DNA of 64,000 bases, taken from assembly GCA_035529375.1 (NCBI GenBank), contig DATKWU010000009.1, positions 223,124-287,123 on the forward strand. The letters are read 5' to 3'. This document shows, in pieces, positions 3,090 to 57,688 of the stretch. This stretch comes from Patescibacteria group bacterium. GTDB lineage: Bacteria > Patescibacteriota > Microgenomatia > PFEM01 > JAHIFH01. A model generated the notes under the pieces. That model saw only the letters and a program-made list of their open reading frames with translations, was not told where the DNA came from and did not search any database. The stretch's first letter is position 1. The number at the start of each line of letters is the position of its first letter. A program made the position numbers and the translations under genes.

Positions 3090-4493
3090 CTAGCGGTGCT
3101 TTCTTCTATTTGATCTGGATTTTACCAAGTGAGTTTTTCCTATTAAAGGAGAACCTATTTTCACTTGGCCTTTAGCCGTCATTTCAACGGTATCATTTCG
3201 GTTCGGAAGAATAATTTCTTCCTCGCGATAACCCATTCTCTCGGCTAAAAGGGCATATTGTCTCATCTGACGAAAAGCGCCCCCAATTGGAACTAAATAA
3301 TAAGGTCGGGCTAAACCAATCATTAAGGCTAAATCTCCCTGAGCAGCATGGCCACTGACGTGAAGGTCATCAAGAATATCTGAATAAGCGACATCAGCTC
3401 CTTGGCGGGAAAGGTTATCTACTAGCTTATTAATCGCCAATTGGGTACCAGGAATATAATCTGGTGAAGAAAAAACCACTTTATCATCAGGCTGAATTTC
3501 CAGTCCTTTATATTCACCTCTGGTAATCCTATCTAAGGCCGAACCTGTCTGGGCTTGACTGCCAGCCACAAACAAGCTAACTTTTTCTTTTGGCAAACTA
3601 TTTAATTTTTTCATCGGCACAATTGTCTCCTTAGGAATATTCAGGTAGCCCAAACGGGAAGCGATCTTAAAAATTTTTTCAATCGACCGGCCAACTAAAA
3701 TCACTTTTCTATTATATTTTACCGAAACATTCAAAGCTTGCTGCCAACGGGAAACATTAGAAGAGATGGTGGTAATTAAAACTCTTCCTCGACAATTACG
3801 CATTTCTCTCTCCAAAGAGTCCTCAACCATGGCTTCAGAAAGAGTGAAGCCGGCTTTTTCACTCCGCAGGCAGTCAGAAACCAAACAAACAACACCTTGA
3901 TTACCAATGGTCGCGATTTTACCTACGTCAGAAATCGAACCCATTACCGGTGTCCAGTCAAATTTGTAGTCACCCATATGAAGAATCGTCCCGATAGGCG
4001 TTTTAATAGCAACCCCAAAAGTATCGGGAATCGAGTGAGTTAAATAAATAAAATCCAGATTAAAACTGCCCAAATTAACTTTTTCGCGAGAATCAATCAG
4101 GTTGATTTCAACTGATTGACCATATTCATCAAGCTTTTCCTTGATTAAGGCCGTTGTTAGGCGTGAAGCGTAGATAGGAATTTTTCGATTAAGCTTTGGT
4201 AGAATAAAAGGCAAACCACCATAATGGTCTTCGTGACCATGAGTAATGATGATGCCTTTAATTTTCTCTCGATTTCTAACCAAATAATCAACATCAGCCA
4301 CCAACAAATCACCTCGAGTCGTTTCTTCTTCAGGAAAACCAACGCCACAATCAATGATGAGAATTTCGTTATTGTATTGATAGGCAAACAAATTCTGGGT
4401 AACGGTTCCCCAGCCACCAAGAGAAATCAGCCTTAATCCTGACTGATTATTCTGTTTTCTTTTATTGTTTTTATGTCGTCTAAAAATATTCAT
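3090..4493 (-). CDS. rnj: Ribonuclease J (metallo-beta-lactamase / beta-CASP RNase)
   Basis: HGHEDH motif (ITHGHEDHYGGLPF); beta-CASP and C-terminal domain architecture; 467 aa. Confidence 0.85.
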   Translation of the reverse strand: MNIFRRHKNNKRKQNNQSGLRLISLGGWGTVTQNLFAYQYNNEILIIDCGVGFPEEETTRGDLLVADVDYLVRNREKIKGIIITHGHEDHYGGLPFILPKLNRKIPIYASRLTTALIKEKLDEYGQSVEINLIDSREKVNLGSFNLDFIYLTHSIPDTFGVAIKTPIGTILHMGDYKFDWTPVMGSISDVGKIATIGNQGVVCLVSDCLRSEKAGFTLSEAMVEDSLEREMRNCRGRVLITTISSNVSRWQQALNVSVKYNRKVILVGRSIEKIFKIASRLGYLNIPKETIVPMKKLNSLPKEKVSLFVAGSQAQTGSALDRITRGEYKGLEIQPDDKVVFSSPDYIPGTQLAINKLVDNLSRQGADVAYSDILDDLHVSGHAAQGDLALMIGLARPYYLVPIGGAFRQMRQYALLAERMGYREEEIILPNRNDTVEMTAKGQVKIGSPLIGKTHLVKSRSNRRKHR

Positions 4494-4506
4494 TTCAAAA
4501 TTTAAT

Positions 4507-5130
4507 TTAAATTAATTTCATTTGTTTATCAGTTTCTTGTTCTTCAACAATTTTTTCTTCTGGGTGTCCTTCAAGAAAAACCTCTATTTTCTTGAAATCT
4601 TCTTTTACCTCCTCCATTATTTTACCACTTCTTAAAGCCGCGGCCGGATGATACATCGGAATAACAATATAGCGCTTACTTAAAAAATCGACGTATCTCG
4701 CCTGACCGTGAATTTGAGAAATTTTCTCATCAGGCAAAAATTTAGTCATTGAAAACCGACCTAAAGTCACAATAATTTTCGGCTGAATTACTTGAATTTG
4801 TTCATCTAAAAAAGACCGGCAAGCTTCAATCTCTTCTGGCAAAGGGTCACGGTTACCTAGTGGTCGATGTTTAATGACATTACCAATAAAAACTTCTTTT
4901 CTTTCCAGTTTAATTAATTGAAGTAGCTGATCCAATAGTTTCCCCGCGGCACCAACAAAAGGTAATCCTTGCTGATCTTCATGAAAACCAGGGCCTTCAC
5001 CAATAAACATCACCTCGGCATCAGGATTACCATCTCCAGGCACAGGATGAGTTGTTCCTTTATACAAACTACAACGGGTACATTCTGAAACCCGCCTTGC
5101 AATTTCTTCTAATTTCTCCGCTTTAGTCAT
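4507..5130 (-). CDS. Uracil-DNA glycosylase, family 4 (Fe-S type)
   Basis: N-terminal Cys cluster (CTRCSLYKG); motif A GEGPG...FVGAAGKLLD; motif B HPAAALR. Confidence 0.8.
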   Translation of the reverse strand: MTKAEKLEEIARRVSECTRCSLYKGTTHPVPGDGNPDAEVMFIGEGPGFHEDQQGLPFVGAAGKLLDQLLQLIKLERKEVFIGNVIKHRPLGNRDPLPEEIEACRSFLDEQIQVIQPKIIVTLGRFSMTKFLPDEKISQIHGQARYVDFLSKRYIVIPMYHPAAALRSGKIMEEVKEDFKKIEVFLEGHPEEKIVEEQETDKQMKLI

Positions 5131-5150
5131 TTAAACTGCATCTAAATAAA

Positions 5151-6227
5151 TTACCAAGTAGGTAAAAACTCTTTTACATTTTCACTGGTGATATGAAAAC
5201 TTCTACCTTTACCTTGGACAATCATTTTGGCTACTTTCCGACAGATACCGTTAATCGTTCTTTCTAAAGTTCGGATACCGGCATCATAACCTAAAGGCCT
5301 GACAATTTTTGGCCAAACGTCAGGATCAATTCTAATCGCCTCCTTGTCCAAACCAGTCTCTTGGATTGTTCTTGGTAAAACATAGTCCTTACTAATTTTG
5401 ATTTTTTCTTCATCTGTATAAGAGGGCATTTGGATTGGTTCCAAACGATCCATGACCGCCACCGAGATATTACTGGTATTATTGCAAGTAGCAATAAATA
5501 AAACTTCAGAAAGATCAAAAGAATAGTCAATAAAGTGATCACGAAAAGCCATATTTTGTTCGGGATCAAGCAATTCTACCAAAACACCCATAATGCTTGA
5601 CCGACCATCTTCGGTTACTCGATCAATCTCATCAAGAAGAAGAACTGAATTCTTTGTCCCGGTTCGCCGTAAAGCCTTAATAATCAAACCCGGTTCAGCA
5701 TCGGGTCGAATTCGGGATTGACCCCGCAGATCAAGGGGGTCACCTAAACCGCCAAAAGGAACCCGTGCAAACTTTCTCCCCATCGCTTCGGCAATCGAAT
5801 AAGCAATCGTTGTCTTCCCTGTTCCTACTAAACCAACAAAAAGGAGCATTGGTGCTCTCATAAACTTCAAAATACCTTCTTCCTTTCTTTCTTCTTTACC
5901 CTCTCTTTTTAATCTCATCACCGCTAAATACTCTAAAATTCTCTCTTTGGTTTCTTCTAAACCATAATGATTTTCATCTAAAATCTTTTTGGCCGCTTCC
6001 AAATCAAGCCTATCTTCACTTCTTTTCTCCCAAGGTAGGGCGGTTATCCAATCAATGTAATGCGAAACTCGCTCGTACTCGGTTGAATACTCACCATACT
6101 TAATCATTCGAGAGAGACGTTCAATTAAATGAAGACACTTTTCCTTTAATTCTGGGGGTAAACAAGCTGCTTCCGTCTTTTCTTCTAATTCAGCAATTTC
6201 TTTAAATAGGGCAGTTTTTTCAGGCAT
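5151..6227 (-). CDS. Lon-family AAA+ ATPase module without N-domain or S16 protease domain
   Basis: Matches the Lon coiled-coil/AAA+ region (YIDWITALPW, HYGLEETKERILEYLAV, Walker A GLVGTGKTT, sensor ATCNN...DRLE). The ORF ends about 20 aa after the AAA alpha-subdomain and no protease domain lies adjacent. Confidence 0.6.
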   Translation of the reverse strand: MPEKTALFKEIAELEEKTEAACLPPELKEKCLHLIERLSRMIKYGEYSTEYERVSHYIDWITALPWEKRSEDRLDLEAAKKILDENHYGLEETKERILEYLAVMRLKREGKEERKEEGILKFMRAPMLLFVGLVGTGKTTIAYSIAEAMGRKFARVPFGGLGDPLDLRGQSRIRPDAEPGLIIKALRRTGTKNSVLLLDEIDRVTEDGRSSIMGVLVELLDPEQNMAFRDHFIDYSFDLSEVLFIATCNNTSNISVAVMDRLEPIQMPSYTDEEKIKISKDYVLPRTIQETGLDKEAIRIDPDVWPKIVRPLGYDAGIRTLERTINGICRKVAKMIVQGKGRSFHITSENVKEFLPTW

Positions 6228-6271: not shown

Positions 6272-8449
6272 TTAATGACGTCGAGGCGGTCGACGATTCG
6301 GCCGTCGAGAAAAACCTGAAGAACTTCGCTGCCGAGGTGGTCGATAATCACTCGTTTGTTTGTCTGGCTGCTCCTTTAAAACCATGGTTAAATTAATTCT
6401 CCCCATATCATCAATCTCAGAGACCTTAACTTTAACCTTATCGCCAATCTTAACGACTTCATTAGGGTCCCTAACATATTGAGTTGACATTTTTGAAACA
6501 TGAACCAAACCATCTTTACCTGGTAAGATCTCGACAAAAGCCCCAAAAGGCTGGATTCGCTTGACTTCGCCTTCAAAAATCTCACCTGCTTCAACCTCTC
6601 GAGTCAAACCTTCAATTTTAGCCACAGCCATGTCCACCGCCGCTTTATCAGGTGCAGAAATATTAACTGAGCCATCGTCTTCGACATCAATTGCTGCCCC
6701 AGTTTCCTTAATCAATTCCCTAATAACACGTCCACCGGGACCAATCACTTCACCAATTTTATCTACAGGAATATGAAGAACTCTAATTTTAGGAGCGAAC
6801 TTGGAAATCTGAGCCCGAGAAGCAGGCAAAACAGTCATCATTTTTTTGAGAATAAAATTCCTTCCTTCTTTGGCTCGAGAAACAATCTCCTCGAATAATT
6901 TTAAATCAATACCTTGATTCTTAACATCCATCTGAACAGCCGTCATCCCTTTTTCTGTTCCCGCCAGTTTGAAATCTATATCACCATTAAAATCTTCTAA
7001 TCCTAAGATATCAGTCAAGATTACTTGTTTTCCCCCTTCTTCGATTAAACCCATGGCGATTCCGGCTACTGGTGCCTTAATAGGCGCTCCAGCGTCCATT
7101 AAAGATAAAGTTGAACCGCAAACAGCGGCCATTGAGGTGGAACCATTAGAAGACATTATTTCTGTTACCACCCGAATGGTATAAGGAAATTTATCTTCGG
7201 CAGGAATGACACTTAATAAAGCCTTTTCTGCCAAAGCCCCGTGACCAACTTCCCGACGCTTGGGCCAACCTACATAACCAATTTCTCCCATAGAAAAAGG
7301 CGGCATGTAATAATGATGAATGTAACGTTTGGTCTCCTCACCTTCCATGTTTTCAATTAATTGTTCTAAAGAAGGCGAACCCAAAGTGGTCACCGTCAGA
7401 GCTTGGGTTTGGCCACGTTTAAATATCGCCGATCCATGAGTCCGCGGCAATAAACCAACTTCGACCTCAATTGATCGAATCTCATCTGGTTTTCGACCAT
7501 CAATCCGTTTACCCTTATTGACAATTTGTTCTCTAATACTTTTCTTAATTAAATCATCGATAATTCGATTAATATCTTTTTTGTTCTCTTCACCAAATTC
7601 TTCCCCTAAAGCTTCTTTCACTTCACCGATTAATTCTCTTGCTTCATTTTTGGCCATACTCGTTAAAATCTGGTCAATTTGTTTAGTCGCAACTTCGGTT
7701 ACTTCCTTAACTAATTTTGCATTAACTTTTTTAGTTTCGACTGTTTGCTTCTTTTTACCAACTTTTTTAACTAATGATTCAATTAATTGAATCACCTCTT
7801 TTATTTCTTTTTGGGCAACATCAATTGCTTTGATAAGAATTTCTTCAGGCACTTCTTGGGCTGATCCTTCGATCATAATGGTCTTGTTCTCTTTTCCAGA
7901 AATAATCAAATCCATAATTGAATAACTTAAATCTTGGTAAGTAGGATTAATGACAAACGAACCTTCGCTATTTTTAGGAACATAACCAACTCTCATTGAA
8001 CCCACTGGTCCTTGCCAAGGAAGATCGGAAATAGCCAACGCGGCACTGGTCGCCCAAACTGCCGGCATATCAGGATCGTTCTCACCATCAACCGAAAGAA
8101 CGGTAATCACTACCTGAATATTATCCCGACAGTCCTTAGGAAATAATGGTCGAATAGAGCGATCAATTAAACGAGCTGTCAAAACAGCTTCGTCAGAAGG
8201 CCGACCTTCCCTCTTCACCCAACGGGAACCTTTAATCCGACCGCCAGCATAAAGACGTTCAACATACTCGACTTGAAGAGGCAAATAATCAAGACCTTCT
8301 TGAGGTTCTCCAGAGACAACGGTTGCGAGAACCATTGTATCACCGTAGCGAACTAAAACAGCGGCATTAGCCTGCTCGGCTAAAAGACCAACCTCTAAAG
8401 TTAATTTTTTGCCACCGATTTCTTTTGATTGAGAAACAGTTTTTATCAT
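6272..8449 (-). CDS. pnp: Polyribonucleotide nucleotidyltransferase (PNPase)
   Basis: 725 aa; two RNase PH domains, KH and S1 domains; basic R/P-rich C-terminal tail. Confidence 0.95.
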   Translation of the reverse strand: MIKTVSQSKEIGGKKLTLEVGLLAEQANAAVLVRYGDTMVLATVVSGEPQEGLDYLPLQVEYVERLYAGGRIKGSRWVKREGRPSDEAVLTARLIDRSIRPLFPKDCRDNIQVVITVLSVDGENDPDMPAVWATSAALAISDLPWQGPVGSMRVGYVPKNSEGSFVINPTYQDLSYSIMDLIISGKENKTIMIEGSAQEVPEEILIKAIDVAQKEIKEVIQLIESLVKKVGKKKQTVETKKVNAKLVKEVTEVATKQIDQILTSMAKNEARELIGEVKEALGEEFGEENKKDINRIIDDLIKKSIREQIVNKGKRIDGRKPDEIRSIEVEVGLLPRTHGSAIFKRGQTQALTVTTLGSPSLEQLIENMEGEETKRYIHHYYMPPFSMGEIGYVGWPKRREVGHGALAEKALLSVIPAEDKFPYTIRVVTEIMSSNGSTSMAAVCGSTLSLMDAGAPIKAPVAGIAMGLIEEGGKQVILTDILGLEDFNGDIDFKLAGTEKGMTAVQMDVKNQGIDLKLFEEIVSRAKEGRNFILKKMMTVLPASRAQISKFAPKIRVLHIPVDKIGEVIGPGGRVIRELIKETGAAIDVEDDGSVNISAPDKAAVDMAVAKIEGLTREVEAGEIFEGEVKRIQPFGAFVEILPGKDGLVHVSKMSTQYVRDPNEVVKIGDKVKVKVSEIDDMGRINLTMVLKEQPDKQTSDYRPPRQRSSSGFSRRPNRRPPRRH

Positions 8450-8455
8450 TAGAAA

Positions 8456-8725
8456 CTACTTAGACAACTTCAAATCGCTAATAACATCTTTATAGCGCTT
8501 TTCGTCCCTCTTTAATAAATAAGCTAATAATCTTCTCCTTTTAGAAACAAGCGAAAGCAAGCCTCGTCGGGAATGAACATCTTTTTTATGCTCTTTGAGG
8601 TGGCCGGTTAACTTTTTTACCTTCGCCGTCAACAAAGCCACTTGGACTTCAGGAGAACCCGTATCCTCTTTTGACTGAGCAAATTTCTTAATAATTCTCT
8701 TTTTTTCGTTGGTTGTTAAAGCCAT
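8456..8725 (-). CDS. rpsO: 30S ribosomal protein S15
   Basis: 89 aa; canonical S15 sequence (GSPEVQVALLTAKVKKLTGHLKEHKKDVHSRRGLL). Confidence 0.95.
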   Translation of the reverse strand: MALTTNEKKRIIKKFAQSKEDTGSPEVQVALLTAKVKKLTGHLKEHKKDVHSRRGLLSLVSKRRRLLAYLLKRDEKRYKDVISDLKLSK

Positions 8726-8734
8726 CGGCTCTCT

Positions 8735-8767
8735 ATTTTAACAAAGATAAAAGAGGTTAACAAGAGG
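8735..8767. repeat. 33-bp direct repeat, copy 1 (ATTTTAACAAAGATAAAAGAGGTTAACAAGAGG); carries TTGTTA-N17-TAAAAT on the minus strand upstream of rpsO
   Basis: Identical 33-mer recurs at 9551..9583; the two copies flank xth. Confidence 0.8.
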
Positions 8768-8776
8768 CATAAAACA

Positions 8777-9529
8777 CTAAATTTCTATACCAATCGGACA
8801 ATGGTCCGATCCTTTTACCTCTGGCATAATAAAAGCTTTTTTTAATTTAGATCTTAACTTTTTCGAAACAAAAGCATAATCTATTCGCCAACCCAAATTC
8901 CGTTCCCTGGCCTTAAAAGAATAAGGCCACCAAGTATAATTCCCTCCCTCTTGATGAAACATTCTAAAACTATCTTTAAAATTTAAACTAATTAGTTCAT
9001 CAACTTGTTTTCTTTCTTCTGGAGTAAACATAATATTATTTTGATTCTGACTAGGACGCGCCAAATCAATTTCTTTATAAGCAATATTAAAATCACCAAA
9101 CAAAAGTATCCTTTTATTTTTAATCTTTTTTAAATATTCAAAAAAGTGAGCATAGCTCTTTAATTTATAATTTAAGTTTTCTTTTTGTCTTCCGCCATGA
9201 GGTAGATAAAGATTAATCAAAATAAATTCCTGGTATTCAAGCTTTAAAAATCTTCCTTCTTCATCAAACCTTTTCAGATTAAGTTTTCGCTCAATCAGTA
9301 ACGGTTTTTTCTTAGAATAAACGACGATACCACTATATCCTTTTCTTTTAGCTGAATTAAAATAAGAATAATAGCCTTTGGGAATAACTAAAACATCAGG
9401 TAATTGCTCTTTTTGGGCTTTTATTTCTTGGAGACAAATGATATCCGCGTCCGTTGTTTCCAACCAATCTAAGAAGCCTTTTCGAAAAACAGCTCGCAAA
9501 CCGTTAACGTTCCAAGATACAATCTTCAT
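8777..9529 (-). CDS. xth: Exodeoxyribonuclease III (AP endonuclease, EEP fold)
   Basis: 250 aa; MKIVSWNVNGLRA start; DHCPI C-terminal motif typical of ExoIII/Ape1. Confidence 0.9.
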   Translation of the reverse strand: MKIVSWNVNGLRAVFRKGFLDWLETTDADIICLQEIKAQKEQLPDVLVIPKGYYSYFNSAKRKGYSGIVVYSKKKPLLIERKLNLKRFDEEGRFLKLEYQEFILINLYLPHGGRQKENLNYKLKSYAHFFEYLKKIKNKRILLFGDFNIAYKEIDLARPSQNQNNIMFTPEERKQVDELISLNFKDSFRMFHQEGGNYTWWPYSFKARERNLGWRIDYAFVSKKLRSKLKKAFIMPEVKGSDHCPIGIEI

Positions 9530-9550
9530 TCTTAGTCTTAAATTTTCGTC

Positions 9551-9583
9551 ATTTTAACAAAGATAAAAGAGGTTAACAAGAGG
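9551..9583. repeat. 33-bp direct repeat, copy 2 (identical to 8735..8767); promoter-like TTGTTA-N17-TAAAAT upstream of xth
   Basis: Perfect 33/33 identity with copy 1. Confidence 0.8.
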
Positions 9584-9602
9584 TTAAAGTCGTTGGAAAA
9601 AA

Positions 9603-10502
9603 CTAAACACGGTCCTCACCTTTGTAGATTTTAGGCTCAAACCAATCAGGTTTTGGCTTCTCTATTTCCTCCTCTTCTTCTCTAGTTGGTTGCTTAAGAG
9701 CCGAAACTTTAGCAGGCATTGGTTTCAGAGGAGAGGTGCTTTTAGACTTTTTATTAGGCAATCTAACTTCTCGCCTTGCTCCCATTTTGAGACAAAGAGC
9801 GGCCGCTTCAAAGGTATCAGCACTCACTTTAGGTGAGGAAAATCGGTTGGTGGCTCGTTCAATTCCTTGAAAAAGATTAGTTCCAATATCCCTATCAGTC
9901 AATAATCTCAATAGTCCGATTAGTTTCGCCACTTCTTCAGAAAAGGAGGCGGCTGAAGGATCAACCAAGTTAATTTGGCCGTATTGTTGATTTCGAGAAT
10001 TATTATCTAAGTTAATAACCTGAGTCTCTTTAAAAGCTTCCTGATTATCTTTGTAAAGATTCCCTAAACTCTCTAAGGAACTAGCACCAATCGTAAAAAT
10101 CAAATCCACCTTCCCACCAGTGTAGGAAAATTCGACTTTATCTGAATCAAGAGGCGGATGACCAGGTCTAGGTTTAATCACTAAATTAAACTTACCATCT
10201 TCAATATTGTAACTGACCTTCTCAATCGCATCCTCAATATAATCAAAGGATATACTTAAGCTGTCTTTACCACCCTTAAGGCTATTTTCAATTTTATCAA
10301 CCCCGACGAGCGAAGAAAAACCAACCGTCATTTCGGTTGAACAGCCAATGTTTACTGATTTCTTGGTTGTTCCTAAAGAAAGATAGAGAGCCAAACCAGC
10401 TGCCACTTGATCAAAATTGGGATTTTGGGGCAAGGCAATAAAAACTGTTTGGGCAGTGGCAAGAGCGGATTGAATTTGAGAAGCCTGGCTTTGATTAATC
10501 AT
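9603..10502 (-). CDS. Hypothetical protein at the rbfA/truB/nrnA position; weak DHH-like N-terminus with degenerate catalytic motifs
   Basis: 299 aa between infB and xth. N-terminal VFIALPQNPNFDQVAAGLAL loosely resembles NrnA motif I (HxHxxPDxD) with D-to-N changes; no DHH or GGGH motifs. Confidence 0.25.
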   Translation of the reverse strand: MINQSQASQIQSALATAQTVFIALPQNPNFDQVAAGLALYLSLGTTKKSVNIGCSTEMTVGFSSLVGVDKIENSLKGGKDSLSISFDYIEDAIEKVSYNIEDGKFNLVIKPRPGHPPLDSDKVEFSYTGGKVDLIFTIGASSLESLGNLYKDNQEAFKETQVINLDNNSRNQQYGQINLVDPSAASFSEEVAKLIGLLRLLTDRDIGTNLFQGIERATNRFSSPKVSADTFEAAALCLKMGARREVRLPNKKSKSTSPLKPMPAKVSALKQPTREEEEEIEKPKPDWFEPKIYKGEDRV

Positions 10503-11951
10503 TTACTCTTCCACTTTTCGATAAGAGATTAGCACATCACCTATCTGGAAGTCAAGCGTAGGTGAGAGAATCGCCCCGAATTCCTCATCTTTTTTAGCTT
10601 TCTCAATATCCTTTTTCTCAGTTTTCATTGATCTGATACGACAGTTACCGATTAGCTCTCCAAGGCGTTGGAGATGAAGCTGATCAGTTTTTTTAATTTC
10701 ACCCTCAATTACCCGACAACCAGCCACTCGCTGTTTGTCGATCTCAAATTCCTGAAGCATCTCGGCGCGTCCCGAAATTTCTTCATCGGCCATGGGTTCT
10801 AGCTTTTTTTTAACCTTTTCTTCAATCTCTTCAAAAAATTTGTAAATAATCTGAAAAGGGCTAATTTTTACTTTTTCGGTGGCAGCTAATTTCTTAACTT
10901 TTCCTGGAGTTTTAACATTAAAAGCAATAATTTCTGCTCCTGTTGTTTCGGCCAACAAAACATCTGATTCGTTAACTTCACCTACACTTGAATTAATGAC
11001 TTTTACTCCCTCAGGCAAACCAGCTAAAATAGCTTCTAAACTACCATTAACATCAGCTTTGATAATCAAATTCAATTTTTCCTCATCAGTTTCTTCTTTT
11101 TTAACTAGACTAGGAATTGCTTTTTTTTCTAAGGAAACTGGTTCTTTTTCAGTCCGTCTAAGAGTACTACCAATTGTTGGTACGGTTTTAAAACCTAAGA
11201 CCTCAACTGGTTTGCTCGGACCGGTGGTTTTTACTCTTTGACCACTTTCATCAAACATGGCCTTGATTTTAGCAAAGGTACCATCAGCTTCAATCTGGTC
11301 ACCGACTCGTAAATTGCCATTCCTGACCAAAATTGTAGCTAAGGGACCACGATACTTATCTAACTTAGATTCGATCACTAGAGCTTTCAACTCAGCTCCT
11401 GGTTTCTCTTTAATTTCTTCCATCTCTGCCACTAACAAAATCATTTCCAAAAGTTCATCAATCCCTTTGCCTGTTTTGGCAGACACCGATACGCTCACAA
11501 TCTTACCCCCTTGGTCTTCGACCAAGACATTGTTCTTAGCTAAATTTGCTTTTACTTGCTTTAGATCAAAATGAGGTAAATCAATCTTGTTAATGGCGAC
11601 TAGATAGGGAATTTTCGCTTGTTCAATATATTTTAGACTCTCTAAAGTTTGGGGTTTAACACCTTCATCAGCCGCCACCACTAGAACGGCGAGATCAGCG
11701 ACTTTGGCACCCCGAGAACGCATCTCTGAAAAAGCGGCATGGCCGGGAGTATCAACAAAAGTAATGGTTTTGTTTTTAAATTTTATTTGGTAGGCACCAA
11801 TGTGTTGGGTAATACCGCCAAATTCTTTAGCAACGACATTGGTCTGACGAATCTTATCTAGAAGAGTGGTTTTACCGTGATCAACATGGCCAAGGATAAC
11901 CACCACTGGTGGTCGTGAAGAATTTTGAGAAATGTTTTTCTCCTTTGCCAT
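10503..11951 (-). CDS. infB: Translation initiation factor IF-2 (short form lacking N-terminal extension)
   Basis: G domain VVVILGHVDHGKTTLLD, DTPGH, NKID; 482 aa. Confidence 0.95.
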   Translation of the reverse strand: MAKEKNISQNSSRPPVVVILGHVDHGKTTLLDKIRQTNVVAKEFGGITQHIGAYQIKFKNKTITFVDTPGHAAFSEMRSRGAKVADLAVLVVAADEGVKPQTLESLKYIEQAKIPYLVAINKIDLPHFDLKQVKANLAKNNVLVEDQGGKIVSVSVSAKTGKGIDELLEMILLVAEMEEIKEKPGAELKALVIESKLDKYRGPLATILVRNGNLRVGDQIEADGTFAKIKAMFDESGQRVKTTGPSKPVEVLGFKTVPTIGSTLRRTEKEPVSLEKKAIPSLVKKEETDEEKLNLIIKADVNGSLEAILAGLPEGVKVINSSVGEVNESDVLLAETTGAEIIAFNVKTPGKVKKLAATEKVKISPFQIIYKFFEEIEEKVKKKLEPMADEEISGRAEMLQEFEIDKQRVAGCRVIEGEIKKTDQLHLQRLGELIGNCRIRSMKTEKKDIEKAKKDEEFGAILSPTLDFQIGDVLISYRKVEE

Positions 11952-11979: not shown

Positions 11980-13161
11980 TCATTTTAGTGATTTTTTAAT
12001 TTCTTCTGCCGCTTTGGGACCAATGCCTTTAATTGCTGCCACTGTATCTTTTTGTGATGCTAATTTTTTCTTTGTTTCAATACCAGCCGCTTCTAAAGTC
12101 GTAATCGTTCGCGTCGATAGACCTAGTTCTTCTAGCTCTGATGGTTTAGTTTTGGCCTTTTCTTTTTCTTTTTCAGTCTTCTTAACGATTTTTTCGGCAC
12201 CTTTAATATCAATTCTGTAACCAGTTAGTTTAGCGGCTAAACGAACATTCTGGCCTTCTTTACCAATCGCTAGAGAAAGTTGATCTTCAGGGACAGAAAC
12301 GATCGCTTCTTTTTTCTTTTCATTAAGTTTAACTTTAATCCCTTCCGCTGGTGAAAGAGCGGCCACAATAAATTTTTCCAGACTATCACTATACTGGATG
12401 ACATCAATTTTTTCGCCTTCAAGCTCGTCAATGACCGCCTGAACCCGGACGCCTTTTTGACCAACACAAGAACCAACTGGATCAACTCCTAATTGAGTTG
12501 AGGAAACCGCAATCTTTGTTCGACCGCCGCCTTCCCGAGCAATTACCTTAATTTCTACGGCGCCTGAAGCAACTTCAGGCACTTCCCGACGGAAAAGAGC
12601 CTCAACCAAACCGGGGTCGGCTCGAGAAACAATTACTTCTCGACCCCGGGCTGTGTCACGAATTTCTTTAATCAGGAAAGTAAGACGTTGATTAACCGAG
12701 TATCTTTCTGCCCTAATTTGTTCTTGGGGAGGCATAACTCCCTCGGCCTTACCAATATCCACAATTGCATTTGGCCCATCAAAGCGAATAATCATTCCAC
12801 TAACTAAGGTACCAGCACGCTTGGAATATTCATCCAGAATAGCGGTTTTTTCTGCTTCCCGAAGTTTTTGGATAATCACTTGTTTGGCAGTCATTGAAGC
12901 AATCCGACCAAAACCTGGTGGGGTAACTTCTTTCTTTTTCTCTTCTTCCTCTTCAGGAAACTCGTAGACCTTAAAGCCCCCTGTTTCCATATCCAAATCA
13001 ACACTATAATCCATACCCTCTTTGACACCATAATCTTTTCGATAAGCGGCTAAAACCGCTGATTTAATTGATTCTAAAGCCACATCAGGCTCAATGCCTT
13101 TTTCAGCACAAATCTGATTAAGGGCAGAAGCAAATTCGGTTCTCGCTTTAAGAACAGTCAT
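11980..13161 (-). CDS. nusA: Transcription termination/antitermination factor NusA
   Basis: NusA N-domain, S1, two KH and C-terminal HhH. Start set at ATG 13161 (MTVLKAR); the TTG at 13206 in the ORF track would read through the upstream terminator hairpin. Confidence 0.9.
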   Translation of the reverse strand: MTVLKARTEFASALNQICAEKGIEPDVALESIKSAVLAAYRKDYGVKEGMDYSVDLDMETGGFKVYEFPEEEEEKKKEVTPPGFGRIASMTAKQVIIQKLREAEKTAILDEYSKRAGTLVSGMIIRFDGPNAIVDIGKAEGVMPPQEQIRAERYSVNQRLTFLIKEIRDTARGREVIVSRADPGLVEALFRREVPEVASGAVEIKVIAREGGGRTKIAVSSTQLGVDPVGSCVGQKGVRVQAVIDELEGEKIDVIQYSDSLEKFIVAALSPAEGIKVKLNEKKKEAIVSVPEDQLSLAIGKEGQNVRLAAKLTGYRIDIKGAEKIVKKTEKEKEKAKTKPSELEELGLSTRTITTLEAAGIETKKKLASQKDTVAAIKGIGPKAAEEIKKSLK

Positions 13162-13185
13162 CTTTTTTCTTTTTTTATTTAAAAA

Positions 13186-13202
13186 GGTGGGAAGTTCCCA
13201 CC
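13186..13202 (-). terminator. Stem-loop GGTGGGAACTTCCCACC followed by a T-run on the minus strand; likely terminator of the upstream small membrane ORF
   Basis: Perfect 7-bp GC-rich stem plus TTTTTAAATAAAAAAAG directly before the nusA ATG. Confidence 0.5.
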
Positions 13203-13262
13203 TCAAAACTCATTTAACCAAACTAATTCTAACACCGAATAAAAAAGAAGTCAAAAATTGGC

Positions 13263-13604: not shown

Positions 13605-13662
13605 TCTTAAATAATTATAACTTAACGATCAAATAAATTTTCAACCATGTTAAAATATAGAT

Positions 13663-14550
13663 ATGTCTCCAAAGAAAAACTGGGCGATTATTTCTCTTGT
13701 TTTTGCTACCTTACTCTATGGTCTCTATGGTGTTTATTCTCGCCTAATTGGCCTTGATTTTGGTGTTTTTTATCAAAATTTCCTAAGAAATCTAATTGTA
13801 GCGGTTATTCTTATATTCTATTTATCCCTCAAAAAAGAATGGCAACGAATCAAAATTAAAGACATCAAATGGATTATTGCCTGGGTTTTTAGTGGCTTTA
13901 TTGCGATTATCACAATCTTTATTGCCTTCAATAAAATTCCTATTGGTATGGCTCTTTTCATCTTCTATGCCGGCTCAATCATTAGTGGTTACTTAATTGG
14001 TAGTCTATTTTTTGGCGAAAAATTATCAAGAATTAAACTTTTTTCAATTATTTTAACTTTTATCGGTCTTGCTTTAATCTACTCCCTGAATTTCGAAATA
14101 AACAAGTCGAAATATCTTCTCTTCGCTCTAATTGCTGGTTTTTCAACCGGCATCTGGAACACGCTTTCTAAAAAGGTCTCAAATAAATATTCTCACATAC
14201 AATTAATTTTTATTGATGCCTTATTGCATGTTTTTTTAAGCCTCCCCTTAATATTTATCTGGAACGAAAAATTATCTTTCCCAAAACTATCAGTTCCCTG
14301 GGTAACCATTCTCGCTTTTGCTCTAACTCAAATAGTAGTAGTTAAGCTTATTATTTATGGCTTTAGGCATTTAGAAGCTCATCTTGGCACTTTAGTCATG
14401 CCTCTAGAAGTATTCTTTGGTGCTCTTTTTGGTTTTATTTTCTTTAAAGAAGTTCTTTCTTTTTACACAATCATTGGAGGTTTGATTATAATATCAGGGT
14501 TTATATTGCCAAACTTACTAATCAATCAAAAAGGCAAATCATCAGAGTAA
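13663..14550 (+). CDS. EamA/DMT-superfamily transporter
   Basis: 295 aa, about 10 TM in two repeated halves typical of EamA. Confidence 0.65.
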   Translation: MSPKKNWAIISLVFATLLYGLYGVYSRLIGLDFGVFYQNFLRNLIVAVILIFYLSLKKEWQRIKIKDIKWIIAWVFSGFIAIITIFIAFNKIPIGMALFIFYAGSIISGYLIGSLFFGEKLSRIKLFSIILTFIGLALIYSLNFEINKSKYLLFALIAGFSTGIWNTLSKKVSNKYSHIQLIFIDALLHVFLSLPLIFIWNEKLSFPKLSVPWVTILAFALTQIVVVKLIIYGFRHLEAHLGTLVMPLEVFFGALFGFIFFKEVLSFYTIIGGLIIISGFILPNLLINQKGKSSE

Positions 14551-17117: not shown

Positions 17118-17525
17118 CTATCTGTTCATAAGAGTAATCGAGAGTTGCAAAAAAGTAGCAATGCTCACCCAAATCAGATAAGGAATTTGAAGAAAAGCTA
17201 AGATTTTTGAGTGAGGAAAAATCGCCACCATCCCCCAAACAATTGTTAGCCAAACAACCAAGATATCAAAACTAGCTAAAGGCAAGTTTTTCAAGCCAAA
17301 TAAAATAGGTGTAAAAGCAAAATTAGCTATCAGATTAATAATAAAAGGTAAGGCGACAATCAAAACGATTTCTTTCTTAATCAGCCGATAAAAGATAACA
17401 GTAAAGGTAATCAGAATAAGAGGATAAAGGATTGTCCAAATAGTGCTAATTGTTCCGGAAGTCGGTGTCCAACTAGGCTTTACCAAAGCTTGATACCAAT
17501 CTTGCCAATTCCAACTGGTTAACAT
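17118..17525 (-). CDS. TspO/MBR-family tryptophan-rich membrane protein, tentative
   Basis: WYQALVKPSWTPTSGTISTIWTILYPLI matches the TspO signature WYxxLxKPxxxP...VWxxLY. Confidence 0.45.
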   Translation of the reverse strand: MLTSWNWQDWYQALVKPSWTPTSGTISTIWTILYPLILITFTVIFYRLIKKEIVLIVALPFIINLIANFAFTPILFGLKNLPLASFDILVVWLTIVWGMVAIFPHSKILAFLQIPYLIWVSIATFLQLSITLMNR

Positions 17526-42422: not shown

Positions 42423-43436
42423 TTAATCTCCCTTCATCTTTAATTGTTTTGTTTCTTCTCCTGCGCCTTCACTTAAAGAATCGGTTGAAGATAGTTTTTG
42501 GCCTAAGAGAGTAAAACCAGAAAGAACATTACTCATTTGGTTGTAAGCATTCTGGAGATGTTTGCCAAGAACCGAAAGAGAACTCTCGGTCTTTTCATAA
42601 TCTTTTCTAATCGCCCTTAAAAGTCGAAAAACTTCCCGGGAACGACTTTCTATTTTCTTACCTTCAAAAGACAAGAGAATTGTCTGGAGATGAGCGTAAA
42701 GAGTTGAAGGGGAAACCGGATAAACTCGATGGCTTCGAGCAAAGTCGGTCAAATCAGGAATATTGGCAATTTCATAAAAAACCGCTTCTGAAGGAATATA
42801 CATTAAAGCAAAATCCATTGTCCCTTCTTCAGGCAGGATATACTTTTGGGAAATTGTTTTAATGTGTTTCTTAACATCAGCCACAAAAGAGACCCTAGCT
42901 TTTTTCTTTTCTGCTTCGTTTTCAGCTTTAACAATTCGTTGAAAATTTTCCATGGGAAATTTAGAATCAATAGGTAAAAGACCTGCATCCGTTCTCAGGG
43001 CGGCATCGACCTTTTCCCCTGATTTAAAACTGTATTGAAGATAAAAGGCATTTTTGGGAAACATTTGGGAAATTAAGTCTTTTAAAACTTCCTCACCAAT
43101 ATTACCTCTTAACTTAGGACTCTTTAAAAATTCTTGTAAGTCACGCATTGACCGACCAATTTCACTGAATTGACCCGCCTCTTTTTGAAGATCACCAATC
43201 ACTCGGGCGGCCCGATCAAGCCGGGTGGCAATGGCATCAGTATTCTTTTGCAAAGTATCGGTAATGTTCTTGTTGCTTTTTTGCAACAGATCTTGGTTCG
43301 CCCGAAGCCATTCAACTAGAGTTTCGTCTGGTTTGTTTTTTTCCGCAATTTGAGAAAGTTTTTTGTTAATCAAAAAAACCGCCAGGGCAATGGCGCCAAT
43401 AATCAAGGCCGTTAAAAGGTAAAATTCGTTGGGCAT
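42423..43436 (-). CDS. rmuC: DNA recombination protein RmuC
   Basis: N-terminal TM plus long coiled coil and C-terminal RmuC nuclease-like domain (YILPEEGTMDFALMYIPSEAVFYE). Confidence 0.8.
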   Translation of the reverse strand: MPNEFYLLTALIIGAIALAVFLINKKLSQIAEKNKPDETLVEWLRANQDLLQKSNKNITDTLQKNTDAIATRLDRAARVIGDLQKEAGQFSEIGRSMRDLQEFLKSPKLRGNIGEEVLKDLISQMFPKNAFYLQYSFKSGEKVDAALRTDAGLLPIDSKFPMENFQRIVKAENEAEKKKARVSFVADVKKHIKTISQKYILPEEGTMDFALMYIPSEAVFYEIANIPDLTDFARSHRVYPVSPSTLYAHLQTILLSFEGKKIESRSREVFRLLRAIRKDYEKTESSLSVLGKHLQNAYNQMSNVLSGFTLLGQKLSSTDSLSEGAGEETKQLKMKGD

Positions 43437-43474
43437 AGCTTCAATTTTAGCACAAATTAGCGTATGATTAAATC

Positions 43475-56991: not shown

Positions 56992-57649
56992 TTTTTCCTT
57001 CCTTTCTCTTGGGCCATTTGTAAACAACCAAAGGAAAAACCAAAGCTAGAAGCCAGCCAAAAGGAGCTAAAAAAGCAAGGAAAATTGGCTTGATCGCTAA
57101 AACTTTATCTAAAAGATAAAGGTTCAAACCAATCATGGGAATGGCCGCAAAAACACTGATTAACAGATAAGGCTTGAATTTCATGGCTGTTAATCCAGCC
57201 GCATAAGAAACATAATCAGCTGAAGCCCCACCTAATAGCCGGGCAAGAAACAACATTTTCAAACCAATTATTTTGGTGACTTCATCAATTTTTTCCATCG
57301 TCTTTTTACCAACTAATTTGGCAACAATTGGTCGTCCCCAACGCTGGGCAATCAAAAAATTAATGGCTGAACCAACCGTATGGCTAATCAGAACATAAAA
57401 ACAGGTTTGCCAAAAATCAAACAAAGCTAAACCCACTAACCAAAAAGGAATTGAAGTTAAGGGAGAAACAACAATCGATAAAGTAATCAGGACGATCAAA
57501 ACCAGTGGTCCTAAAATTCCAAAGGAACGGACAAAACTTTTTATTTCTTCAATCTCAAAGCGATAAACATTTCTTTGAAGAAGATAAAGAGCCAAAATAA
57601 TTAAAATAACAACAGTGATCAATAAAATTGCCTTTTTTCTGGGTTTCAT
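56984..57649 (-). CDS. TVP38/TMEM64 (DedA-related) membrane protein
   Basis: 221 aa; SNARE-associated/DedA-like pattern with glycine-rich re-entrant segment. Confidence 0.55.
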   Translation of the reverse strand: MKPRKKAILLITVVILIILALYLLQRNVYRFEIEEIKSFVRSFGILGPLVLIVLITLSIVVSPLTSIPFWLVGLALFDFWQTCFYVLISHTVGSAINFLIAQRWGRPIVAKLVGKKTMEKIDEVTKIIGLKMLFLARLLGGASADYVSYAAGLTAMKFKPYLLISVFAAIPMIGLNLYLLDKVLAIKPIFLAFLAPFGWLLALVFPLVVYKWPKRKEGKIT

Positions 57650-57688
57650 AAGCCAATTTTAACACGGCAAAGATGGTAGAATTAAGTA

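Follow-up and report, generated by a model that had tools for sequence, protein, structure and literature searches.

How did a gene for exodeoxyribonuclease III (xth) come to lie within the nusA-infB-rpsO-pnp gene block of a Patescibacteria group bacterium, between two copies of the same 33-bp sequence? The question is raised by a 64,000-nucleotide stretch of contig DATKWU010000009.1, which is called the window here. A first-pass annotation of the window had reported an identical 33-mer upstream of both rpsO and xth, and this was exact. The 33-mer ATTTTAACAAAGATAAAAGAGGTTAACAAGAGG (forward strand) was found at 8735-8767 and 9551-9583, 816 nt apart and with 0 mismatches, and the two copies bracket xth. 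We call the xth-proximal copy R1 and the rpsO-proximal copy R2. Their identity ends abruptly on both sides, and the 33-mer is the sole perfect repeat of at least 33 nt in the window. The search for extra copies covered about 64 kb of the genome and the JGI contigs. No further site was found in the 64-kb window at up to 3 mismatches (0 expected in shuffled sequences) or at up to 10 mismatches, and when all JGI metagenome contigs were scanned for exact matches, one contig with one copy came up, which was an empty site lacking xth. A dispersed repeat family, which would make the flanking arrangement coincidental, was rejected on these counts for the 64 kb and the JGI contigs. The placement of xth inside the block was also retained, with the gene calls confirmed, but a gene for an NrnA-like protein between infB and xth had gone unmentioned.

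When the locus was compared across related genomes, xth was present at the infB-rpsO site in some and absent in others. All 15 relatives from the Genome Taxonomy Database (GTDB) that keep the order nusA-infB-NrnA-like gene-rpsO-pnp had no xth between the NrnA-like gene and rpsO. Closer outgroups (L097-L101) were found via the NrnA-like protein, with identities of 81%, 72% and 71%. At this site they were likewise without xth, and their spacer between the NrnA-like gene and rpsO was 62-75 nt long with one promoter. The empty site was also observed in six contigs of a sister lineage (L003/L091, L083, L092, L093, L094 and L096, from NCBI, ENA and JGI). There, the stop codon of the NrnA-like gene is followed by 20 nt, the identical 33-mer, AGGGAGCCG and the ATG of rpsO, which makes a spacer of 20+33+9 = 62 nt. 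Compared with this, the occupied site has an additional 816 bp consisting of a 21-nt leader, the 753-nt xth open reading frame (ORF), a 9-nt trailer and the second 33-mer. The left junction of R1 with the spacer of the NrnA-like gene is the same as in the empty-site alleles, and the xth leader is identical in the second lineage that carries the gene (L084/L085). Since all outgroups and the six sister contigs carry an empty site with a single promoter, xth is best read as a derived insertion of 816 bp that duplicated exactly the core promoter, as the annotation had proposed for the rpsO promoter region. The insertion is not brand new, as xth differs by 4.5% in nucleotides between the two lineages.

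The duplicated sequence was then examined for promoter features. On the minus strand, both copies of the 33-mer read CCTC-TTGTTA-N17-TAAAAT with a TG (TGT before TAAAAT) at the extended -10 position, and thus have the hexamers and the spacer of a sigma-70-type extended -10 promoter. R1 and R2 are the only two sites of the window that match TTGTTA-N14-16-TGnTAnAAT. For comparison, the rpsO upstream regions of L097, L098, L099-L101, L007 and L009 were used, relatives with NrnA-like identities of 37-81%. In the 33-nt frame, the window and the sister lineage have CCTCTTGTTAACCTCTTTTATCTTTGTTAAAAT, followed by the leaders AGAGAGCCG and AGGGAGCCG, respectively. L097 (NrnA-like 81%) has CCTCTTGTTAACCTTTTTCATCTTTGTTAAAAT and again the leader AGGGAGCCG, L099-L101 (71%) have CCTCTTGTTAATCCCATTCATCTTTGCTAAAAT and a leader of 9 nt, and L098 (72%) has CCCCTTGTTAAGCTTCCTAGTCTCTGATAAAAT and a leader of 8 nt. 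In L007 (CCTCTTGTTAAATAAATCGTTTTTTGTTAAAAT) and L009 (CCCCTTGTTAATCAAGAGCTTTTTTGTTAAAAT) both blocks and their spacing are kept at a greater distance from the rpsO start. CCnCTTGTTAA, the TG, TAAAAT and the 17-nt spacing were invariant across the compared relatives and the spacer sequence drifts, which is the pattern expected of a core promoter. In the more distant L004 and L005, TGnTAAAAT is located just 6 nt ahead of the rpsO ATG. The comparison largely supports the reading that rpsO-pnp of this Microgenomates lineage has the 33-mer as its native core promoter, of sigma-70 type with an extended -10. The annotated TTGTTA-N17-TAAAAT element is preserved in relatives with its boxes and its spacing, and in L097-L101 also with its distance to rpsO. 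It also provides a comparative definition of a Microgenomates promoter, CCnCTTGTTAA-N-TGnTAAAAT. At the RNA level, R1 and R2 folded no better than shuffled sequences (z -1.0 and -0.06), the repeat copies had no Rfam match at the gathering or E-value threshold, and the S15 leader RF00114 scored 14 bits against a gathering threshold of 39.5 (E 3.1). A structured RNA, a terminator or an S15 leader was ruled out by these folding scores and the Rfam result.

The -10 element ends 9 nt before the ATG of rpsO and 21 nt before that of xth. The short distance of rpsO recurs in L097-L101 with 8-9 nt and, as 6 nt, in L004 and L005. A Shine-Dalgarno-like motif was detected with a lenient test in 8 of the 60 window genes, and a TAnAAT ending 4-16 nt before the ATG in 11 of the 60, several of them being TGnTAAAAT at 6-9 nt. 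Because Shine-Dalgarno motifs are few and -10 elements close to the ATG are many, the near-leaderless rpsO mRNA that the annotation had predicted would be normal for this organism, a common arrangement in its genome and conserved in the clade. TGnTAAAAT or TAnAAT elements 6-9 nt before the ATG were seen at many first genes, for example at 13648-13665 (+), 43436-43452 (-) and 57649-57664 (-), so that leaderless or near-leaderless mRNAs may be widespread in this member of the Patescibacteria. The 58-nt divergent intergenic region at 13605-13662, between a 113-aa membrane ORF (-) and an EamA gene (+), holds two -10-like elements in back-to-back orientation, at distances of 6 and 9 nt to the start codons of the two genes, and suggests a compact bidirectional pair of leaderless-type promoters.

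Next, the distribution of the occupied and empty alleles was analysed in the two lineages. In the window lineage, xth was found in all seven contigs that bear the window-type S15. The sister lineage shares about 95% nucleotide identity with the window in all flanking genes; here xth was found in two contigs (L084 and L085) and was absent from six. In L084 and L085, xth has the position and the junctions that it has in the window, and their gene shows 95.5% nucleotide and 93% amino acid identity to the window xth; the flanking genes of the window and L084 are 93-96% identical in nucleotides. The xth-plus L084 and the xth-minus L003 are 99.9% identical over 17 kb outside the indel. Of their 24 differences, 9 fall in a tract of about 1 kb around the indel and about 15 in the remaining 17 kb. 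The clustered differences comprise four in the final 146 nt of the gene for the NrnA-like protein and five in the 42 nt of R2 and the rpsO leader. At seven of these nine sites the xth-minus allele matches the window, and it shares the leader AGGGAGCCG with outgroup L097, which has no xth. Accordingly, this allele resembles an ancestral site that was never occupied, and L084 seems to have received its xth-bearing tract of about 1 kb from a diverged relative by homologous recombination via the flanking genes. Because the nine substitutions cluster around the insertion site, allele exchange is favoured over a recent deletion, and xth, as a presence/absence polymorphism, appears to spread by recombination between homologous flanks. 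The cluster of single-nucleotide polymorphisms (SNPs) and the outgroup-like states of the minus allele are incompatible with a simple, recent loss of xth from the plus allele that was sampled; an older deletion in an unsampled haplotype may be the source of the minus allele. In L084 and L085, R1 is a perfect 33-mer and R2 has two substitutions, both in the spacer. By our estimate, only about 1-2 neutral differences are expected in the 17-nt unconstrained spacer at this divergence; the zero differences between R1 and R2 in the window are not significant, and gene conversion is not needed for their perfect identity.

The studies that yielded the occupied allele also yielded the empty one (ERZ4902897 and ERZ4902948; Rifle SAMN03842427 and SAMN03842429). 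L003 has a 100-N gap at the point where the alleles diverge, and its second piece begins with GCCGATG after a 55-nt overlap. This start corresponds to the first 55-mer common to AGGGA/GCCG and AAAGG/GCCG. Contig L095 terminates at the last base of the 33-mer. We infer from these assembly breaks at divergence points that both alleles coexisted in those samples. The co-assembled GTDB metagenome-assembled genomes (MAGs) L003, L008, L044 and L047 have scaffold gaps of 100 N between duplicated overlaps of 55 nt (SPAdes k=55 edges that were not merged), and the L003 gaps at 7621-7720 and 11308-11407 are both at gene presence/absence sites.

Taken together, the best explanation as a whole, which we hold with fair confidence, is that the native rpsO promoter was duplicated by insertion of an xth cassette and that the alleles were later exchanged. 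In the ancestral state, the NrnA-like gene and rpsO would have been separated by 62 nt that contained one copy of the promoter, its -10 ending 9 nt before the ATG, an arrangement that would give a near-leaderless S15 mRNA in a largely Shine-Dalgarno-free genome. In a single event, the minimal cassette of leader, ORF and trailer would have entered and the core from -35 to -10 would have been duplicated. R1 would now drive xth from an A-rich mRNA leader of about 14 nt without a Shine-Dalgarno motif, and its transcripts would read on into rpsO-pnp because the 9-nt trailer has no terminator. R2 would keep rpsO-pnp transcribed from the original near-leaderless start, which is probably needed for S15 translation. 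Since then, the cassette may have behaved like a minimal mobile element, fixed in the window lineage and polymorphic in the sister lineage. The duplication itself may have originated in a target-copying event (staggered-break fill-in or template switch), combined with selection retaining those insertions in which xth and rpsO both keep a complete promoter. Alternatively, a circular molecule with xth and the promoter may have recombined at the resident promoter in a Campbell-type event. The annotation had spoken of promoter capture or a recombination scar; the duplication stands, and its primary origin may be either of these candidates, as this wording already allowed.

Some points weigh against the duplication of the promoter by a cassette insertion. 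The duplication begins and ends exactly at the borders of the conserved promoter core, which is not predicted by a random staggered break and calls for selection or for recombination inside a segment with homology to the promoter. With these borders, the CC near -39 and the final T of the -10, an origin that is based on homology or filtered by selection is mildly favoured over a random break. The synonymous divergence (dS) of xth between the window and L084 is 0.12, near the 0.15-0.30 of the neighbouring genes, which also fits an older insertion that was then lost. The xth donor and its original flanks were not found in the homologue search, so that the proposed modes of the primary insertion are candidates. 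The predicted promoter activity and start sites are based on sequence and conservation, and the result that there are no further 33-mer copies applies to the roughly 64 kb of genome and the JGI contigs that were searched.

The older insertion leads to an alternative in which xth and the repeats are ancestral to the whole clade of 95% average nucleotide identity, and the minus alleles arose by precise deletion, through recombination or slippage, between the 33-bp repeats. The absence allele holds exactly one 33-mer, as such a deletion predicts. The divergence of xth is like that of its flanks (95.5% against 93-96% nucleotide identity, with the dS values given above), and the gene has the most relaxed constraint among the ten neighbouring genes, which fits a dispensable gene. 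However, the minus allele differs at 5 of the 42 nt of R2 and leader and at 4 sites in the 3' part of the NrnA-like gene, compared with 0.1% elsewhere, its leader is that of the xth-less L097 and every outgroup is empty. We consider this deletion unlikely. An assembly artefact, in which the repeat or the insertion is a chimeric join, could be suspected from the 100-N scaffold gaps with 55-nt overlaps at the L003 locus. This is hardly credible, since the xth-plus state was found in seven window-type contigs as well as in L084 and L085 from other studies and assemblers, and the xth-minus state in clean JGI, ENA and NCBI contigs with linked SNPs of their own.

A gene inserted between direct repeats of its target sequence is also what a mobile element would leave, be it a transposon, an integron-like cassette or an Xer/dif element, and the repeats would then be its target-site duplication or its att sites. 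Yet no transposase, integrase or recombinase was found within 10 kb on either side of the site. The insert has no inverted repeats, terminal or otherwise, and nearly no non-coding DNA; xth is its only ORF, accompanied just by the leader and the trailer. A transposase and terminal inverted repeats inside a duplicated target, as in a transposon or insertion sequence, were thus not seen, and 33 bp is far above the usual transposon duplication lengths. The repeat has neither a significant fold nor an attC-like or dif-like palindrome, whereas an imperfect palindrome of attC type, or a tyrosine or serine recombinase next to the site, would be expected for integron cassettes and integrase att sites. 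The mark of an Xer/dif element (IMEX), a dif-like site of 28 bp at the terminus whose arms are inverted, was not present either. The GC skew is monotonic across the window without an inversion, which indicates that no replication terminus or dif site is located here. TTGTTAAAAT loosely recalls an XerD arm. This was a lead only, and the Xer/dif idea was rejected because of the missing GC-skew inversion, the direct heptamers and the missing nearby recombinase. On these grounds a mobile element is very improbable. The heptamers in question are two direct, not inverted, TTGTTAA copies 19 nt apart in the 33-mer, and they raise the possibility that the 33-mer is chiefly an operator, bound by a regulator that co-regulates xth and rpsO, and not, or not only, a promoter. 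TTGTTAA occurs twice at a fixed spacing with both heptamers kept in L097, L007 and L009, and the CCnC upstream of the -35 is conserved as well. The second heptamer, however, is TTGCTAA in L099 and CTGATAA in L098, yet the TGnTAAAAT logic is kept there. In addition, the distance to the ATG matches that of other leaderless-type promoters of the genome and no regulator gene is adjacent, so that an operator is quite improbable. A different extension of the promoter duplication would be that the 816 bp of promoter and xth are a self-sufficient, promoter-bounded cassette moving as a small circle via recombination at the 33-bp promoter. We regard this as a long shot. If true, it would be a form of gene flux free of mobility genes that delivers genes ready for leaderless-type expression, and the route might be general in the reduced genomes of Patescibacteria.

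Other indels and inserts were inspected for flanking repeats. Four further indels between the window and L084 (Metallophos, EamA, TspO/DUF3850 and a 127-aa ORF) had no flanking repeats of at least 12 nt. The spacer between the NrnA-like gene and rpsO is filled differently in two relatives. In L005 (5980-7730) it contains small AbrB/PIN-like and nucleotidyltransferase/HEPN-like ORFs (toxin-antitoxin-like), and in L009 (6490-7420) a 289-aa GHMP-kinase-like gene on the opposite strand. No flanking repeats were found around these two spacer inserts. A general repeat-flanked indel mechanism in the genome was ruled out by these inserts and the other indels, and the spacer itself appears to be an insertion hotspot, judging from its content in the compared genomes. 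Among the indels, the 164-aa Metallophos gene lies between a Lon-like gene and a uracil-DNA glycosylase (UDG) gene in L084/L003 and is missing from the window (5131-5150). The window has an EamA transporter (13663-14550) and TspO (17118-17525), which are either missing from L084 or replaced there by DUF3850.

Perfect direct repeats of 36-76 nt that flank a segment were also noticed in other loci of the candidate phyla radiation (CPR) that were compared (L038, L005 and L007). L038, a Doudnabacteria MAG, has a perfect 47-nt direct repeat at 4501-4547 and 5722-5768 around a single CofD/YvcK-like gene. This gene adjoins a tyrosine recombinase gene whose 3' end forms one of the two repeat copies, and a weaker similarity runs past the 47 nt. 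The L038 repeat is best described as a decayed duplication of the end of the target gene. In L005, the copies of a perfect 76-nt repeat (10276-10351 and 11506-11581) are spaced by 1230 nt and enclose two ORFs for small membrane proteins, downstream of pnp. L007 has a 36-nt repeat with a hairpin at 867-902 and 4212-4247; one copy stands after rpsO and the other after the Lon-like gene, and the pair brackets pnp and lon.

The inserted gene was identified as xth by PF03372 (Exo_endo_phos) at 5.7e-31 and by full-length equivalog matches to TIGR00633 (299.6 bits, cut-off 99.05) and TIGR00195 (292 bits, cut-off 182.55). Its GC content is 31.1% against 38.7 +/- 4.1% for the window ORFs and the second lowest among 52 ORFs. 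Between the window and L084, its ratio of nonsynonymous to synonymous divergence (dN/dS) is 0.26, the highest among the ten neighbouring genes (0.02-0.16 in the others), which indicates purifying but relaxed selection, as would be expected of an accessory gene. The nearest outside homologues (P0002 and P0005) are about 70% identical and have unrelated gene contexts, and no flank similarity was found between these contexts and the xth locus. The named top matches are all of Parcubacteria type, which is a weak lead for horizontal transfer of xth.

The features of the locus are listed in the table. The whole block from nusA to pnp is on the minus strand, and 6 nt separate the rpsO stop from the pnp start. 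The GTDB relatives of the window PNPase are Patescibacteria of the Microgenomates group, for example Shapirobacteria and Collierbacteria. A Pfam search with the 299-aa ORF between infB and xth gave no match for the window copy. Its homologues match PF01368 (DHH), the JGI label is nanoRNase/pAp phosphatase and the position between infB and rpsO is kept across Microgenomates. The protein looks like a degenerate NrnA-like protein in the slot that is held by rbfA and truB in other bacteria. A family-4-type UDG gene (PF03167) at 4507-5130 (-) is located 3.6 kb downstream of xth on the same strand, so the inserted apurinic/apyrimidinic endonuclease gene landed near another base-excision-repair gene.

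Table. Features of the xth insertion site and its neighbourhood (positions in the window; promoter and mRNA assignments are predictions)
Feature	Position	Strand	Remark
nusA	11980-13206	-	gene call confirmed
infB	10503-11951	-	gene call confirmed
NrnA-like (degenerate DHH) gene, 299 aa	9603-10502	-	upstream flank of the insertion site
spacer from NrnA-like gene to R1, 19 nt	9584-9602		
R1, xth-proximal 33-bp promoter copy	9551-9583	-	-35 9579-9574, -10 9556-9551; now precedes xth
xth leader, 21 nt, GACGAAAATTTAAGACTAAGA	9530-9550	-	A-rich, without Shine-Dalgarno motif
xth, exodeoxyribonuclease III, 250 aa, 753-nt ORF	8777-9529	-	cargo of the insertion
xth trailer, 9 nt, xth stop to R2	8768-8776	-	without terminator
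R2, rpsO-proximal 33-bp promoter copy	8735-8767	-	-35 TTGTTA 8763-8758, TG 8743-8742, -10 TAAAAT 8740-8735
rpsO leader, 9 nt, AGAGAGCCG	8726-8734	-	makes rpsO mRNA near-leaderless (predicted)
rpsO (S15)	8456-8725	-	gene call confirmed
pnp (PNPase)	6272-8449	-	downstream of rpsO, same transcription unit (predicted)
insertion unit, 816 bp: leader, xth, trailer and one promoter copy	8735-9550	-	can equally be drawn as 8768-9583

The locus is a naturally replicated and unusually clean case in which a streamlined, uncultivated bacterium gained an accessory gene in a core cluster without disturbing the cluster. As the insertion copies the exact core promoter, xth would be expressed and rpsO-pnp would keep their near-leaderless start. 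Since occupied and empty alleles occur in near-identical wild genomes, the site can also serve as a practical marker for recombination and gene flux in Patescibacteria populations.

When the locus is compared with the canonical nusA-infB-(rbfA-truB)-rpsO-pnp cluster, the order nusA-infB ... rpsO-pnp is kept, whereas the NrnA-like gene stands in place of rbfA and truB. Unlike in loci with the S15 autoregulatory leader (RF00114), the 9-nt rpsO leader offers no room for an S15-binding leader. Indels flanked by direct repeats arise or vanish by misalignment or short-homology recombination, such as RecA-independent slippage or a Campbell-type single crossover (e.g. Lovett 2004). The xth site resembles these in having a perfect short direct repeat at both ends of the indel and a single copy in the other allele. 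It differs in that the repeat is a precise functional unit, the core promoter from -35 to -10, and in that the sampled xth-plus and xth-minus alleles are not simple derivatives of each other.

Sigma-70 extended -10 promoters that drive leaderless mRNAs are described for Actinobacteria and Deinococcus (compare PMC3160421, PMC3898074 and PMC6028130). With these promoters, the TGnTAAAAT found here 6-9 nt before the start shares the missing Shine-Dalgarno motif and a common occurrence in the genome. The differences are that the organism belongs to Patescibacteria and that the 9-nt spacing of rpsO suggests a leader of 0-4 nt and not strictly a 5'-terminal AUG. The minimal mobile elements (MMEs) of Neisseria (Saunders & Snyder 2002) resemble the locus in several ways. 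As in the passage of PMC3898611 that defines them, a site between two conserved genes holds different whole-gene cassettes or nothing, depending on the lineage. The variable cargo of an MME was also found here, where the site contains xth, nothing, the toxin-antitoxin-like ORFs or the GHMP-kinase-like gene. There are no mobility genes within 10 kb on either side of the xth site, and the divergence clustered at the indel, in a background of 99.9% identity, points to exchange by homologous recombination. In contrast to the xth cassette, which is bracketed by the 33-bp promoter duplication, MMEs are not defined by flanking direct repeats in that passage, and no natural transformation or other uptake route is known for the organism studied here. 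In conclusion, the xth site is not a new kind of element or system but a well-documented and mechanistically ordinary promoter capture. Two known processes, the capture of a promoter by duplication of the target and the exchange of cassettes between conserved flanks, are exemplified by it in a little-known phylum.

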